From IMG/VR virus record IMGVR_UViG_2529293038_000015: a stretch of 12,302 nucleotides of DNA, one strand, 5' to 3'. The notes beneath the pieces are model-generated. The model saw only the letters and a list, made by a program, of their open reading frames with translations. It ran no database searches and had not been told where the DNA came from. The position numbers were made by a program, and so were the translations under genes. The DNA is from a virus. Taxonomy: Duplodnaviria > Heunggongvirae > Uroviricota > Caudoviricetes. How positions within the stretch are numbered: the stretch's first letter is position 1; each line of letters opens with the position of its first letter. Below, in pieces: positions 1-12,302 of the stretch.

Positions 1-360
1 GGAAAAATGACGGCCAGGATCCGCGTCAACCGGGGCAATCTGCCCGCCATTAAGCTGGGGACAGCCCGGGTCAGACTGGCCCGGCGTGGTGGAAAACTGC
101 AGTACCGTGGCAGTGTGCTGAAGGTGGGTAAATATCTTTTCCGGGATGCGTTTATTCAGCAACTGGCGAATGGTCGCTGGCATGTGATGCGGCGTATTGA
201 TGGCAAAAATCGTTACCCCATTGATGTGGTGAAAATCCCGTTGTCCGGACCGCTGACACAGGCATTTGAAGATGCCCGCGACCGCATCATTGCTGCGGAA
301 ATGCCGAAACAGTTGGGTTATGCACTGAAACAACAACTGAGGTTATGGCTGACCCGATGA
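1..360 (+). CDS. Z: Minor tail / tail completion protein Z, C-terminal part; 5' end lies upstream of the window
   Basis: Frame open from base 1 to TGA at 358-360. Translation (..RIRVNRGNLPAIKLGTARV..NGRWHVMRRIDGKNRYPIDVVKIP..LGYALKQQLRLW) matches my recollection of the C-terminal ~120 aa of lambda gpZ. Stop overlaps the U start (ATGA). Confidence 0.85.
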   Translation, partial: GKMTARIRVNRGNLPAIKLGTARVRLARRGGKLQYRGSVLKVGKYLFRDAFIQQLANGRWHVMRRIDGKNRYPIDVVKIPLSGPLTQAFEDARDRIIAAEMPKQLGYALKQQLRLWLTR

Positions 361-758
361 ACCGACATACACAAATCCGCCAGGTCGTACTGGCACGCCT
401 TCGGGAACAGTGTGGAGACAGCGCCACGTTTTTTGACGGGCTTCCGGCATTTGTTGATGCGCAGGAACTGCCTGCCGTGTCGGTGTGGCTGAGTGATGCT
501 CAGTACACCGGAAAAATGACGGATGAAGATGACTGGCAGGCTGTTCTGCATATTGCTGTCTTCATCCGGGCACAAGCACCGGATTCAGAGCTGGATATGT
601 GGATGGAGAGCACCATTTTCCCGGCCCTGAATGATGTACCGGCACTTTCCGGACTCATCGACACCCTGATCCCACTCGGTTTTAACTATCAACGTGATAA
701 TGAGATGGCCACCTGGGCGATGGCGGAAATCACGTACCAGATCACGTACACGAATTAA
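357..758 (+). CDS. U: Tail terminator protein U
   Basis: ATG 357 overlaps the Z stop; 133 aa; ..ATFFDG..ELPAVSVWLSDAQYTG..DSELDMWMES..ITYQITY aligns with lambda gpU (131 aa). ATG at 345 is an alternative start, but homology begins at 357. Confidence 0.9.
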   Translation: MNRHTQIRQVVLARLREQCGDSATFFDGLPAFVDAQELPAVSVWLSDAQYTGKMTDEDDWQAVLHIAVFIRAQAPDSELDMWMESTIFPALNDVPALSGLIDTLIPLGFNYQRDNEMATWAMAEITYQITYTN

Positions 759-768
759 GGAGGTGGTA

Positions 769-1512
769 ATGACCACACCAAATCCACTGGCAAAAACGAA
801 AGGTGCGGGAACGACGTTCTGGATGTATACCGGCAACGGCGACGCATTTGCGAACCCTTTGTCGGACACTGACTGGCTGCGTCTTGCGATGGTGAAGGAT
901 CTGCAACCTGGCGAAATGACCGCTGATGCAGAAGATGACACTTATCTCGATGATGAAGATGCAGACTGGAAAACGACAACCCAGGGGCAGAAATCCGTTG
1001 GTGATACTTCGGCGACGCTGGCCTGGCGTCCGGGTGACAGCGGGCAGAAAAAACTGGTTCAGTTGTTCGACTCCGGTGAAGTCTGCGCGTTTCGTATCAA
1101 ATATCCCAACGGCACTGTTGATGTTTTCCGTGGCTGGCTGAGCTCACTGGGTAAAACCATTGCCTCAAAAGACGTGATGACCCGCACAGTGAAAATCAGC
1201 GGTGTGGGGCGTCCGTATCTGGCAGAGGAGGGCACTGAAACTGTGGGCGTTACCGGGCTGACGGTGGCACCGGCATCTGCCAGTGTAAAAGTGGGAGCAA
1301 CCACCACGCTGACCTTTACAGTAAAACCTGACGGAGCCAGTGACAAAGCGATCAGTGTGCATTCGACAGATCCACAGACTGCCACGGTGACCCTGAACGG
1401 GCTTGTGGCCACGGTGAAAGGCGTGAAGCAGGGCAGTGTCAGCATTGTGGGCATGACTTCTGACGGCGATTTTGTGGCAGTGGCTGCGGTGGCTGTCAGC
1501 GCCGCAGGTTAA
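769..1512 (+). CDS. V: Major tail tube protein V with C-terminal Ig-like (Big_2-type) domain
   Basis: ATG 769 preceded by AAGGAGGTG (751-765); 247 aa; KGAGTT..ANPLSD..YLDDEDADW..GQKS.GDTS.TLAW..YPNGTVDVFRGW matches lambda gpV, though more diverged than the neighbouring genes. The ORF track's 694 start is an in-frame upstream extension overlapping U. Confidence 0.92.
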   Translation: MTTPNPLAKTKGAGTTFWMYTGNGDAFANPLSDTDWLRLAMVKDLQPGEMTADAEDDTYLDDEDADWKTTTQGQKSVGDTSATLAWRPGDSGQKKLVQLFDSGEVCAFRIKYPNGTVDVFRGWLSSLGKTIASKDVMTRTVKISGVGRPYLAEEGTETVGVTGLTVAPASASVKVGATTTLTFTVKPDGASDKAISVHSTDPQTATVTLNGLVATVKGVKQGSVSIVGMTSDGDFVAVAAVAVSAAG

Positions 1513-1532
1513 CAGGACGATACTCATCATTT

Positions 1533-1557
1533 GCCCCGGTTATCCGGGGCTTTTTTT
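1533..1557 (+). terminator. Intrinsic-terminator-like hairpin between V and G
   Basis: Perfect 7-bp GC-rich stem GCCCCGG (1533-1539) / CCGGGGC (1544-1550), 4-nt loop TTAT, followed by T7 (1551-1557); sits in the V-G intergenic gap. Confidence 0.55.
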
Positions 1558-1572
1558 CAGGTGGAGAACATG

Positions 1573-1959
1573 ATGTTTCTGAAACAGGGCACGTTTAATT
1601 ATGAAAAGCAGTCCGTGGTGCTCAGTGAGCTGTCCGGGCTGCAGAGAATTGAATATCTGGCGTTTGTTCAGCAGCGAACGGCAAAGTTTGATGCCGAAGA
1701 GGGAGAACTGCCGGAGGCTGAACGACAGATTGCTTTTCTGCGGATGGGGATGGATATCAATGCCTGGCTGGTTTCCCGCTCACAGTGGAATGCGGATCAG
1801 TCTAAGGATGTAGAGACGCTTTGCGCATCCGTTATTACAACATGGTCGTATGATGCCCTGGGTGCGGGGGCGGAGATGGTTCTGTCGCTGAGCGGTATGG
1901 GGACCATTGATAATGCCGGGGATGATGAGCATGAGGCGCTGACGCCGGAAAAGTCCTGA
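1573..1959 (+). CDS. G: Tail assembly chaperone G
   Basis: ATG 1573 (MFLK.., as in lambda gpG) with GGAG at 1564-1567; 128 aa; LSELSGLQRIEYLA motif; position immediately after V; ends TGA 1957-1959. Confidence 0.85.
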   Translation: MFLKQGTFNYEKQSVVLSELSGLQRIEYLAFVQQRTAKFDAEEGELPEAERQIAFLRMGMDINAWLVSRSQWNADQSKDVETLCASVITTWSYDALGAGAEMVLSLSGMGTIDNAGDDEHEALTPEKS

Positions 1960-2297
1960 CGCGGGAAATGCAGTTTGTCATGCGGCTTGCCCGGGAGTTC
2001 CGGCGGGCAGACTGGCGGCGGATGCTGTCGGAAATGTCGGCCACTGAGCTTGGTGAGTGGGGCGATTATTTCCGGATGCAGAGCTTCAGTGATGTGTGGA
2101 TGGATGCGCAGTTTGCCTCGCTGAAGGCATTGATCGTGAGAATGGTGTCCGGCAGCAGTGATGCTGCGGTGGCTGATTTCAGCCTTTTACCGGAAGAGAA
2201 CGGGATACCGGAGCGAACGGACGAAGAACTGATGCATCTTGGGGAAGGTATTTCCGGAGGTGTGCGTTATGGACCAGATAGCCAACCTGGTCATTGA
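1573..2297 (+). CDS. T: Tail assembly chaperone G-T fusion made by programmed -1 ribosomal frameshift near the 3' end of G
   Basis: The -1 frame is open from 1537 through 2297 with no independent RBS or start for T; a slippery-like heptamer G GAA AAG (1947-1953) lies 2 codons before the G stop. Arrangement is the conserved G/GT of lambdoid tail operons. T stop (2295-2297) overlaps the H start. Confidence 0.7.
1947..1953 (+). promoter_or_regulatory. Putative -1 frameshift slippery site for G-T (G_GAA_AAG)
   Basis: In the G frame GAA-AAG; in the -1 frame GGA-AAA. Lambda uses G_GGA_AAG; here the P-site codon is GAA rather than GGA while the A-site AAG to AAA slip is retained. Confidence 0.5.
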
Positions 2298-5200
2298 TTT
2301 GGGGATTGATGCGGCAGAGTTTAAAAATGAAATCCCCCGTATCAAAAACCTTCTGAATGGTGCAGCCAGCGATGCAGAACGGTCTTCTGCCCGTATGCAG
2401 CGTTTTATGGAGCGTCAGACTCAGGCCGCCCGGCAGACAACGCAGGCGGCTTCTTCGGCTGCAACAGCCGCATCCGTCCATGCGCAGACGGTGGAGAAGA
2501 ACGCACAGGCTCATGAACGCATGGCCCGCGAGGTGGAGAAAACCCGCCAGCGCATGGAGGCGCTGAGCCAGAAAATGCGCGAGGAACAGGCGCAGGCCAT
2601 GGCTCTGGCGGAGGCTCAGGATAAAGCGGCTGCTGCGTTTTATCGTCAGATTGACAGTGTGAAACAGGCCAGTGCGGGGCTGCAGGAATTACAGCGTATT
2701 CAGCAGCAGATCCGACAGGCCAGAAACAGTGGCGGGATTGGTCAGCAGGATTATCTGGCGCTGATTTCTGAGGTTACGGCGAAAACCCGTGTTCTTACAC
2801 AGGCTGAGGAAGAGGGTACCCGACAGAAAGTGGCGTTTATCCGTCAGCTTAAAGAGCAGGCAACCCGCCAGAATCTTTCATCTTCTGAGTTGCTTCGTGC
2901 TAAGGCTGCCCAGCTGGGGGTAAGCAGTGCTGCAGAAGTGTATATCCGCAAAATGGAGCAGGCAGGAAAAGCCACGCATTCGCTGGGTCTGAAAAGTGCA
3001 GCGGCCCGCCAGGAGATAGGCGTTCTGATAGGTGAACTGGCCCGCGGCAATTTAGGGGCGCTGAGGGGATCCGGGATAACGCTGGCTAACCGTGCCGGAT
3101 GGATAGACACACTGATGTCACCGAAAGGCATGATGCTGGGCGGGGTTATTGGCGGTATTGCCGCAGCTGTCTATGGTCTGGGTAAAGCCTGGTATGACGG
3201 TCAGAAGGAGGGGGAAGAATTTAACCGCCAGCTGTCGCTGACGGGGCATTATGCCGGAGTCACTGCCGGGCAGCTGTGGACGCTCAGTCGTGCTATTTCC
3301 GGGAATGGTATCACGCAACATGCTGCAGCCGGTGCGCTGGCTCAGGTGGTGGGGAGTGGTGCATTTCGTGGAAACGATATCGGTATGGTGGCGAGAGCTG
3401 CCGCACAGATGGAGCGATCGGTTGGCCAGTCGGTCAGCGATACCATAAGTCAGTTTAAGCGGCTGAAGGATGATCCTGTAAATGCCGCGAAGGCTCTGGA
3501 CAATGAGCTGCATTTTCTTACTGCCACTCAGCTTGAGCAGATACGCGTCCTTGGGGAACAGGGGCGTCCAGTGATGCGGCACGGATAGCCATGTCTGCAC
3601 TGGCAGAGGAAACCGGTCGGCGTACTGCGGATATTGATAATAACCTCAATGCGCTGGGCAGTACGCTGAAGTATCTGTCTGATTTATGGAGTCGTTTCTG
3701 GGATGCGGCCATGAATATTGGTCGTGAAGACTCGCTGGATGAACAGATTTCCGCTTTACAGGAGAAAGTGTCGCGGGCGAAAAGACTCCCCTGGACGGCA
3801 TCATCTTCTCAGGTTGAGTACGATCAGCAGCGTCTTAACGAGCTTCAGGAAAAAAAACGCCAGAAGGATTTGCAGGATGCAAAAGAGCAGGCAGAGCGGA
3901 ATTATCAGGAGCAACAGAAACGCCGTAATGCTGAAAATGCTGCACTGAACCGGATGAATGAAACGGAAGCAGCACGACATCAGCGTGAAATTGCGCGTAT
4001 TAATGCCATGCAGTACGCCGATCAGACTGTCAGGGATGCGGCGATACAACGTGAAAATGAACGTTACGAGAAAGCCCTGGCATCCGGTAAGAAAAAAACA
4101 CGCGAAACCCGTAATGATGAGGCCACCCGGTTATTGCTGCAGTACAGTCAGCAACAGGCACAGGTGGAAGGACAGATTGCTGCTGCCAGACAGTCAGCAG
4201 GCATTGCCACGGAAAGGATGACAGAAGCGCATAAACAGCTTCTGGCTCTGCAGCAGCGCATCAGCGACCTGGACGGGAAAAAACTGACGGCAGATGAAAA
4301 GAGTGTGCTGGCCCGTAAAGATGAACTGATTCAGGCACTGACGCTGCTGGATGTAAAACAGCAGGAGCTTCAGAAACAGACGGCACTCAACGAGCTGAAG
4401 AAAAAAACAATTCAGCTGACCAGTCAACTGGCTGAAGAAGAGCGTGCTCAGCGTCAACAACATAATCTGGATATCGCCACGGTGGGTATGGGTGATCAGC
4501 AGCGGCAGCGATATCAGGTACAACTGAGTCTTCGTCAGAAATACCAGCAACAGCTGGAGCAGTTGAGGCGGGATAGTGAGCAGAAAGGGACATATAACAC
4601 GGATGACTACAGAAAGGCCGAGCAGGCGCTGACGGAGAGCCTGAACCGACAACTGAATGAGAATCGCCGTTACTGGCAACAGCTTGAAATTGCTCAGGGT
4701 AACTGGAAAAACGGAGTCCTGCGTGCACTCCAGAATGTCACTGAGAATGCGGATAACACAGCCTGGACAGTGGAACAGTTGTTCACGTCTGCGTTCAGTA
4801 GCATGAGTGACTGGCTGGCGACATTCTGTACTACAGGCAAACTCAATTTCAAATCTTTTACTTCTTCTGTGCTGTCAGATATGTCCAGAATCATGGCTCA
4901 GATAGCTTTAATGAAAGCGGTAAAAGGCATTGCTTCCGCGCTGCCTTTTGATTTTGTAGCCAATGCTGATGGCGGTGTTTATCAGTCGGCTGATTTGAGT
5001 CGCTACAGTGGCACGGTGGTTAACCGTCCGACGTTTTTTGCTTTTGCAAAAGGCGCGGGTGTGATGGGGGAAGCGGGACCTGAAGCCATTCTGCCATTGC
5101 GTCGTGGTGCTGACGGTAAGCTGGGGGGTGTGGCGGATATTGGGGGTTCAGGTATGGCGATGTTTTCCCCGCAGTACAACATCGAGATCAATAACGATGG

Positions 5201-5324
5201 CACGAACGGGCAGATAGGTCCGGCTGCCCTGAAGGCGGTTTATGACCTCGGGAAAAAAGCGGCAGCGGACTTTATGCAACAGCAGGCCCGTGATGGTGGT
5301 CGGTTAAGTGGAGCATATCGGTAA
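2269..5324 (+). pseudogene. H: Tail tape measure protein H, split into two reading frames by a 1-nt frame disruption at about 3537-3588 (pseudogene or sequencing error)
   Basis: ATG 2269 (MDQIANLVIDLGIDAAEF.., cf. lambda H MAEPVGDLVVDLSLDAARF) with GGAGG at 2256-2260. The first frame stops at 3588; the second frame is open from 3537 and ends ..INNDGTNGQIGPAALKAVYD..ARDGG.. like the lambda H C-terminus. Both parts align collinearly to one tape measure protein; combined length ~1018 aa. ORF-track start 2239 is a TTG. Confidence 0.85.
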
Positions 5325-5653
5325 TGGAGACGTTTCACTGGAAAGTGCGCCCGGATATGAATGTGGTATCAGAGCCGAAAGTGGTGACAGTGAAGCTGGG
5401 CGATGGTTATGAACAGCGTCGTGCGGCGGGACTGAATAACCAGTTGTCGACTTACAGCGTGACGATACGTGTTCGTAAATGTGAACACCCATCTTTAAAA
5501 GCCTTTCTGGAACGGCACGGTGGCGTCCGCGCATTTCAGTGGACGCCACCTTATGACTGGAAACCGATTAGGGTGGTTTGTCGTAAATGGTCGGCAAGCG
5601 TGGGGGCGCTGTGGGTAACCATAACGGCAGATTTTGAACAGGTCGTGGCATAG
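5324..5653 (+). CDS. M: Tail tip assembly protein M
   Basis: ATG overlaps the H stop (TAATG at 5322-5326); 109 aa; METFHWKVRPDM..GDGYEQRR..TYSV..FLERHGG..F.WTPPYDWK..EFEQVV matches lambda gpM (109 aa). Confidence 0.92.
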   Translation: METFHWKVRPDMNVVSEPKVVTVKLGDGYEQRRAAGLNNQLSTYSVTIRVRKCEHPSLKAFLERHGGVRAFQWTPPYDWKPIRVVCRKWSASVGALWVTITADFEQVVA

Positions 5654-5662
5654 GAGGCTCTG

Positions 5663-6364
5663 ATGCAGGATATTCCACAGGAAACACATCATGAGACGAC
5701 ACGCCTCACTCAGTCAGCCCAGGTGGTGCTCTGGGAAATCGATCTGACAGAGGTCGGTGGTGAACGTTATTTTTTCTGTAATGAGCAGAACGAAAAAGGT
5801 GAGCCGGTTACCTGGCAGGGGCGGCAGTATCAGGCATACCCCATTCAGGGGACAGGATTTGAACTGAACGGCAAGGGCAGTGCTGCCCGTCCGACACTGA
5901 CGGTTTCTAACCTGCACGGCATGGTCACGGGGATGGCGGAAGACCTGCAGAGTCTGGTCGGCGGAACGGTGGTCAGGCGTAAGGTTTACGCCCGTTTTCT
6001 GGATGCGGTGAACTTCGTCAACGGAAACAGCGACGCCGATCCGGAGCAGGAGGTGGATCAGCCGCTGGCGCATCGAGCAGTGCAGCGAACTGAGTGCGGT
6101 CAGTGCCTCCTTTGTGTTGTCCACACCGACGGAAACGGATGGTGCTGTTTTTTCCGGGGGCGTATCATGCTGGCCAACACCTGCACCTGGACCTATCGCG
6201 GTGATGAGTGTGGTTATCACGGTCCGGCTGTCGCGGATGAATATGACCAGCCGACGTCCGATATCACGAAGGATAAATGCAGCAAATGCCTGAGCGGCTG
6301 TAAGTTTCGCAATAACGTCGGCAACTTTGGCGGCTTCCTTTCCATTAACAAACTTTCGCAGTAA
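5663..6364 (+). CDS. L: Tail tip assembly protein L
   Basis: ATG 5663 with AGGAGG at 5652-5657; 233 aa; N-terminal ~130 aa and C-terminal ~70 aa (..RIMLANTCTWTYRGDECGY..KCSKCLSGCKFRNNVGNFGGFLSINKLSQ) match lambda gpL (232 aa); the central segment differs (see findings). Confidence 0.9.
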   Translation: MQDIPQETHHETTRLTQSAQVVLWEIDLTEVGGERYFFCNEQNEKGEPVTWQGRQYQAYPIQGTGFELNGKGSAARPTLTVSNLHGMVTGMAEDLQSLVGGTVVRRKVYARFLDAVNFVNGNSDADPEQEVDQPLAHRAVQRTECGQCLLCVVHTDGNGWCCFFRGRIMLANTCTWTYRGDECGYHGPAVADEYDQPTSDITKDKCSKCLSGCKFRNNVGNFGGFLSINKLSQ

Positions 6365-6368
6365 TCCC

Positions 6369-7112
6369 ATGACACAGACAGAATCAGAGATTCTGGCGCA
6401 CGCCCGGCGATGTGCGCCAGCGGAGTCGTGCGGCTTCGTGGTGAGCACGCCGGAAGGGGAAAGATATTTTCCCTGCGTGAATATCTCCGGTGAGCCGGAG
6501 GCGTATTTCCGGATGTCGCCGGAGGACTGGCTGCGGGCAGAGATGCAGGGTGAGATTGTGGCGCTGGTCCACAGCCACCCCGGTGGTCTGCCCTGGCTGA
6601 GTGAGGCTGACAGGCGGCTGCAGGTGCAGAGCGATTTGCCTTGGTGGCTGGTCTGCCGGGGTGAGATTCATAAATTCCGCTGTGTGCCGCATCTTACCGG
6701 GCGGCGCTTTGAGCACGGGGTGACGGACTGTTACACGCTGTTCCGGGATGCTTATCATCTGGCGGGGATTGAGATGCCGGACTTTCATCGTGAGGATGAC
6801 TGGTGGTGTCACGGCCAGAATCTCTATCTGGATAATCTGGAGGCCACAGGGCTGTATCAGGTGCCGTTGTCAGCGGCGCAGCCGGGCGATGTGCTGCTGT
6901 GCTGTTTTGGTTCATCGGTGCCGAATCATGCCGCCATTTACTGCGGCGACGGTGAGCTGTTGCACCATATTCCTGAACAACTGAGCAAACGAGAGAGGTA
7001 TACCGACAAATGGCAGCGACGCACACACTCCCTCTGGCGTCACCGGGCATGGCACGCATCTGCCTTTACGGGGATTTACAACGATTTGGCCGCCGCATCG
7101 ACCTTCGTGTAA
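6369..7112 (+). CDS. K: Tail tip assembly protein K with N-terminal JAB/MPN (JAMM) and C-terminal NlpC/P60-like regions
   Basis: ATG 6369 (MTQTESEIL..); JAMM-type motif HSHPGG..SEAD at 6570-6610; Cys/His region (GVTDCYTLFRDAYH..NHAAIYCGDGELLHH). An alternative internal start at 6513 would give 199 aa. The 3' end overlaps I by 103 nt in a different frame. Confidence 0.85.
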   Translation: MTQTESEILAHARRCAPAESCGFVVSTPEGERYFPCVNISGEPEAYFRMSPEDWLRAEMQGEIVALVHSHPGGLPWLSEADRRLQVQSDLPWWLVCRGEIHKFRCVPHLTGRRFEHGVTDCYTLFRDAYHLAGIEMPDFHREDDWWCHGQNLYLDNLEATGLYQVPLSAAQPGDVLLCCFGSSVPNHAAIYCGDGELLHHIPEQLSKRERYTDKWQRRTHSLWRHRAWHASAFTGIYNDLAAASTFV

Positions 7113-7657
7113 AAACGGGGGCTGAAGCCATCCGGGCGTTGTCCACACAGCTCCCGGCGTTTCGTCAGAAACTGAATGACGGCTGGTATCAGGTGCGCAT
7201 TGCCGGGCGTGATGCAGGTGAAACCGAATTATCTGCCCGTCTTAATGAGCCGCTGGCAAATGGTGCCGTGATCCACATCGTGCCGCATCTGGCGGGAGCT
7301 AAAAGTGGCGGTGTGTTTCAGGTGGTGCTGGGTGCGGCGCTGATTGCGGTGGCATGGTGGAACCCTGTGGGCTGGCTGGGTGCCGCGGCTGTATCGGGCA
7401 TGTATGCGGCAGGGGCCAGTATGATCCTGGGTGGTGTGGCCCAGATGCTGGCACCGAAAGCCCGGACGCCCACAGCGACCAGCACGGATAACGGTAAGCA
7501 GAACACCTATTTCTCATCACTGGATAACATGGTTGCCCAGGGCAATGTTCTGCCTGTTCTGTACGGTGAAATGCGCGTGGGGTCTCGTGTGGTTTCTCAG
7601 GAGATCAGCACGGCAGATGAAGGGGACGGTGGTCAGGTTGTGGTGATTGGCCGCTGA
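7010..7657 (+). CDS. I: Tail tip assembly protein I
   Basis: 215 aa; MAATHTLPLASPGMARICLYGDLQRFGRRIDLRVKTGAEAIRAL.. and C-terminus ..DNGKQNTYFSSLDNMVAQGNVLPVLYGEMRVGSRVVSQEISTADEGDGGQVVVIGR are near-identical to lambda gpI as I recall it. Confidence 0.9.
   Translation: MAATHTLPLASPGMARICLYGDLQRFGRRIDLRVKTGAEAIRALSTQLPAFRQKLNDGWYQVRIAGRDAGETELSARLNEPLANGAVIHIVPHLAGAKSGGVFQVVLGAALIAVAWWNPVGWLGAAAVSGMYAAGASMILGGVAQMLAPKARTPTATSTDNGKQNTYFSSLDNMVAQGNVLPVLYGEMRVGSRVVSQEISTADEGDGGQVVVIGR

Positions 7658-7714: not shown

Positions 7715-12302
<4,588 letters not shown>

Follow-up and report, generated by a model that had tools for sequence, protein, structure and literature searches.

A lambda-like tape measure gene lacking one G in a draft contig of Escherichia coli DEC2C, a probable sequencing or assembly artefact within a defective prophage

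The stretch of DNA analysed here, hereafter the window, is the entire contig AIFB01000003.1 (12,302 bp) of the draft genome assembly GCA_000249195.2 of E. coli DEC2C. The tape measure gene H, which appears there as two ORFs, is one gene of the type found in phage cdtI, encoding 1018 aa, from which a single G is missing at position 3566. Comparison with related sequences makes it very likely that this split is a sequencing or assembly artefact. The true H gene of DEC2C is most likely intact and would encode a protein identical to the 1018-aa protein of other E. coli.

The + strand of the window carries a lambda-like tail module, running from Z to J, of a lambdoid prophage of the cdtI/mEp460 type. 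Z (7-360), cut at the contig start, is followed by U (357-758), V (769-1512) and the tail assembly chaperone genes G and T (1573-2297), which lie directly upstream of H. Beyond H come M (5324-5653), L (5663-6364), K (6369-7112), I (7139-7657) and J, which begins at 7718. This gene order, Z-U-V-G-T-H-M-L-K-I-J, is also that of cdtI. In both the window and cdtI, H thus occupies the position expected of the gpH family, between the chaperone genes and the tip genes M, L, K, I and J.

The chaperone pair consists of G (1573-1959) and of T (1968/1980-2297), which is open in the -1 frame; their products match the Pfam families Phage_TAC_2 and Phage_tail_T. G ends with ...CTG ACG CCG GAA AAG TCC TGA (window 1939-1970). 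The slippery heptamer of lambda, GGGAAAG, is missing at this place, its sole copy in the window being located at 6457. A frameshift between G and T would therefore need a variant site such as GGAAAAG.

Both contig ends fall within genes: it begins in Z, of which 117 of 192 codons are present, and breaks off in J (terminal regions 1-360 and 12050-12302). Among complete E. coli genomes with a match to the window, the median number of matching places is three. The two ends fit assembly breaks at sequence common to other lambdoid prophages.

The frame break in H was read directly from the sequence; no statistical pattern is involved for which chance could account. The 5' ORF terminates at the TAG codon 3586-3588, while in the -1 frame a TGA at 3534-3536 is followed by an open stretch from 3537 to 5324; both frames are therefore open over 52 nt (3537-3588, + strand). 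The list of ORFs gives the 5' ORF as 2239-3588 on the + strand, but the database record and the homology with cdtI gp13 place its start at 2269. From this start (2269-3588) it encodes the 439-aa protein EHU50554.1, made of 433 native residues followed by PVMRHG and the stop, and matches the Pfam family TMP_2 (E = 7.9e-50). The 3' ORF of the list begins at an internal Met codon, ATG 3591. Its product (3591-5324, + strand; 577 aa, EHU50555.1) matches TMP_4 (5e-17) and Tape_meas_lam_C (3.2e-22). The domains of the gpH family are thus present but shared out between the two ORFs, TMP_2 in the first and Tape_meas_lam_C in the second. As deposited, H lacks the single continuous frame of this family, being split between 3566 and 3588, and the addition of one G restores continuity.

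Alignments with cdtI and with the corresponding gene of E. coli E2348/69 show precisely which base is absent. Relatives read CAGGGGCGGTCCAGT where the window reads CAGGGGCGTCCAGT, and the single-G form of the site as deposited is CAGGGGCGTCC. At 3565-3566 (+ strand) the relatives have C-GG-T, including the codon CGG of Arg433, whereas the window has C-G-T. The absent base is one G of this GG doublet, directly after C3565 and 3' of the second of two neighbouring G4 runs. When one G is added after C3565, a tape measure protein of 1018 aa is restored, and exactly the same protein is encoded on 18 other contigs according to a public protein collection and a look-up of contigs.

A preliminary description of this DNA, made from its letters alone, had reported a frame disruption with the TAG at 3586-3588 and the -1 frame open from 3537. 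It had also proposed that the two halves are collinear with one tape measure protein, that they form one gene lacking a single base and that the restored product has about 1018 aa. All of this holds: both halves align to cdtI gp13 (3057 nt, 1018 aa), the alignments with cdtI and E2348/69 each contain a gap of one G and the restored sequence exists elsewhere. The lambda-H-like C-terminus that it recognised is borne out by the match to Tape_meas_lam_C and by a 61-nt stretch that is 91.8% identical to lambda H. It had, however, placed the missing base in one of the G4 runs, at 3553-3556 or 3561-3564, and the base actually belongs to the GG at 3566. The alignment to intact relatives that it had advised was run, and it is this alignment that located the base.

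The closest known tape measure protein is that of phage cdtI, gp13 (YP_001272526.1, 1018 aa), which is encoded by a single ORF, whereas the window, for want of one G after C3565, has two. The DNA of the two genes is 99.9% identical over 3086 nt, with two differences, one being the missing G and the other a G/T substitution at 5128; the restored protein accordingly differs from gp13 by one residue, G954V. Tape measure proteins of mEp460-like phages and of E. coli prophages have the same length as cdtI gp13. The relationship to gpH of lambda (853 aa) is more distant. Both genes have the same position in the tail module and their products share the C-terminal Tape_meas_lam_C domain, but, apart from the 61-nt stretch, most of the gene shows no near-identity in DNA, and the restored protein of the window is 165 residues longer. 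Tail length is proportional to the length of gpH, at about 0.15 nm per residue. By this proportionality, a tail about 25 nm longer than that of lambda is a reasonable prediction.

The single-G allele is private to this contig. The 351-nt neighbourhood of the site has matches in 1,837 complete E. coli genomes; identity reaches 99.7% in the best of these, which span 352 nt. A 61-mer across the site matched 681 of 5,426 complete E. coli genomes, none of them identically, and all the best matches span 62 nt. An exact 35-mer with the deletion had no match in 185,579 species-representative genomes, a weak scan since the set holds one genome per species. Among about 15 billion proteins, EHU50554.1 and EHU50555.1 are each found on exactly one contig. 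The extra G is present in all ten of the fetched loci that encode the intact 1018-aa protein. The deletion is thus absent from all near-identical sequences.

The missing G of H is not the only change of this kind. Gene L (5663-6364, + strand), which encodes a minor tail protein, carries three private 1-nt insertions within 102 nt: a G at 6055, T5 changed to T6 at 6153 and G4 changed to G5 at 6156. As a result, 33 codons are read out of frame before the original frame resumes. The stretch has matches in over 4,100 complete E. coli genomes, with the best matches spanning 178 nt for the 181 nt of the window, and the L protein EHU50557.1 is found on one contig only. That cdtI, and not the window, could be erroneous in L is ruled out by the agreement of these genomes, and of L015 (GCA_050053855.1), with cdtI.

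A second group of three lies in a copy of IS4 (10256-11680, - strand) carried by J. Its transposase gene is split into two ORFs by three changes lying within 45 nt, a T added at 11102, a CC reduced to C at 11123/4 and a G5 reduced to G4 at 11146/7, while the rest differs from a standard IS4 copy by one substitution. The copy is 1425 bp long, one base below the standard length of 1426 bp, and the net of its three indels is minus one base. Among thousands of IS4 copies in the 5,426 complete genomes, the closest reach only 99.2-99.4% identity. The last change is located in the 3' part of J (11681-12302, + strand), where a private reduction of C4 to C3 at 11959-11961 shifts the frame again. This change was found in no complete E. 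coli genome; the best matches span 232 nt for the 231 nt of the window and are identical save for this one gap. Together with that of H, which reduces GG to G at 3566, the private run-length indels thus amount to eight in 12.3 kb, all of the same type, that is a change of one base, up or down, in runs of one to six identical bases.

Next to these indels, substitutions are nearly absent. Compared to L015, positions 1-6442 of the window show no substitution and four gaps, the three of L and that of H. In the same way, L016 shows no substitution and one gap, that of H, over 5,752 nt, and L007 no substitution and one gap over the 622 nt of J at 11681-12302. With the one substitution and three gaps of IS4 relative to a standard copy, the comparison with the nearest relatives yields eight indels and at most one substitution. 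Indels make up about 10% of real mutations in E. coli. At this rate the probability of at least eight indels among nine differences is about 8e-8, and at an assumed rate of 30% it is about 4e-4. Furthermore, two clusters of three, 102 nt and 45 nt wide, account for six of the eight indels, an arrangement that has a probability of about 5e-6 under uniform placement. Clustered run-length changes without substitutions point to a stretch of poor reads rather than to independent mutations.

It is because eight private run-length indels, six of them clustered, stand against at most one substitution that the split of H is best read as an artefact. The preliminary description had offered a real deletion and a base-calling error side by side; these counts now favour the error and speak against the deletion. 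The GG doublet, which stands beside a GGGGC run, would have been recorded as one G in the draft. This miscall would split a normal 1018-aa gene into the two annotated halves of 439 and 577 aa, and miscalls of the same run-length type would have occurred at the seven other places in the contig. The likeness to the run-length errors of draft assemblies lies in all eight private differences being changes of one base in runs, in the clustering of six of them and in an excess of indels over substitutions of at least 8 to 1. The difference is that the cause is deduced here. The drafts of the DEC collection were presumably obtained by 454 pyrosequencing, a method that produces exactly such run-length errors; the platform used for DEC2C or for the collection was not found in the literature by accession or strain name.

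Several observations nevertheless argue against an artefact at this particular site. The indel of H is isolated, outside both clusters, and it affects a run of only two bases, in which run-length miscalls are rarer than in long runs. In addition, the prophage is already defective owing to the IS4 in J, so that selection would not act against a real frameshift in H, and E2348/69 shows that real decay of a near-identical gene does happen.

This IS4 insertion follows the 5' part of the tip attachment gene J (7718-10255, + strand), which matches the Pfam families FNIII-A_GpJ, Phage-tail_3, Ig_J and Ig_J_second and ends at the element. The element has intact ends, with 16 of the 20 first bases matching between its terminal inverted repeats, and is flanked by 13-bp direct repeats, CAGCAAACTGGAG, at 10243-10255 and 11681-11693. 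In L007, J is uninterrupted and the 13-mer CAGCAAACTGGAG occurs once. A chimeric assembly as the source of IS4 in J is ruled out by the 13-bp target duplication and by the single-copy target in L007, and the insertion looks real. The junction between J and IS4 was also sought in complete E. coli genomes as a clonal comparator and was covered by none of them; the truncated J protein of 846 aa is encoded on AIFB01000003.1 only.

Because IS4 interrupts J, the DEC2C prophage cannot form a working tail tip, whether or not H is intact. The failure of tail assembly that had been predicted from the break in H adds nothing either way, since the tail module is dead regardless. For the same reason, selection is a weakened argument against a frameshift in H, and a real deletion stays a live rival.

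J also stands apart from the rest of the module in its relationship to cdtI. From Z to I, only 16 positions differ from this phage, whereas J has about 90 substitutions within 1.8 kb (8377-10215), which are nearly all of the substitutions that separate the window from cdtI, and from 10215 to 11890 the resemblance to this phage disappears. This central concentration of substitutions and this loss of similarity indicate that J is mosaic relative to cdtI.

If the missing G were real and private to DEC2C, H would be a pseudogene in a prophage already inactivated by IS4. It would then encode a 439-aa N-terminal fragment, and translation may resume at ATG 3591, which lies two bases beyond the stop, to give a 577-aa C-terminal fragment. 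An independent inactivating lesion does exist in the same prophage, the IS4 insertion with its 13-bp target duplication, and slippage is an ordinary kind of mutation where short G runs occur. A precedent is provided by E2348C_RS05460 of E. coli E2348/69, a near-identical gene that also carries an independent one-base deletion and is flagged as 'frameshifted' by NCBI. In two aligned stretches (322 and 231 columns), this gene and the window are identical save for one gap each. The deletion of E2348/69 removes an A at the equivalent of window position 4380 (3982 of L002), which does not belong to a run, and it is known from a complete RefSeq genome; unlike the window, E2348/69 retains the GG at 3565-3566. 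Against a real deletion in DEC2C, the allele is in no other assembly, and the contig bearing it has seven further private run-length indels while differing by essentially no substitutions from its nearest relatives. Genuine divergence would give neither such a ratio nor such clustering. With zero to one substitution, far fewer than one real indel would be expected across the contig. A real deletion is therefore unlikely.

That the two-frame layout is functional, either through a programmed -1 frameshift joining the halves or through a tape measure naturally encoded by two genes, is scarcely credible. The downstream frame is indeed -1 relative to the upstream one, and the G/T genes of lambda-like phages are known to use a programmed -1 frameshift; however, positions 3480-3586 contain no slippery heptamer of the form X XXY YYZ in the upstream frame, and the two-frame state is seen in this contig only, which rules out a programmed frameshift. 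The naturally separate genes that the preliminary description had envisaged in homologues were not found either. Relatives, including cdtI and the ten fetched loci, have one continuous ORF of 1018-1021 aa (the shorter members of the protein cluster being labelled partial), and a naturally split H is ruled out, every homologue having a single ORF.

There is no new biology in the split of H. If the deletion were real, single-base losses would have knocked out this tape measure gene twice independently, in DEC2C and in E2348/69, and DEC2C would have one more lesion in a prophage killed by IS4, a routine situation for prophage remnants of E. coli. If, as the comparisons suggest, the split is an artefact, EHU50554.1 and EHU50555.1 would each be half of an ordinary tape measure protein of 1018 aa and EHU50557.1, the product of L, would contain 33 scrambled residues. 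The apparent pseudogenes of this draft contig should then not be counted as prophage decay without a check of the reads.
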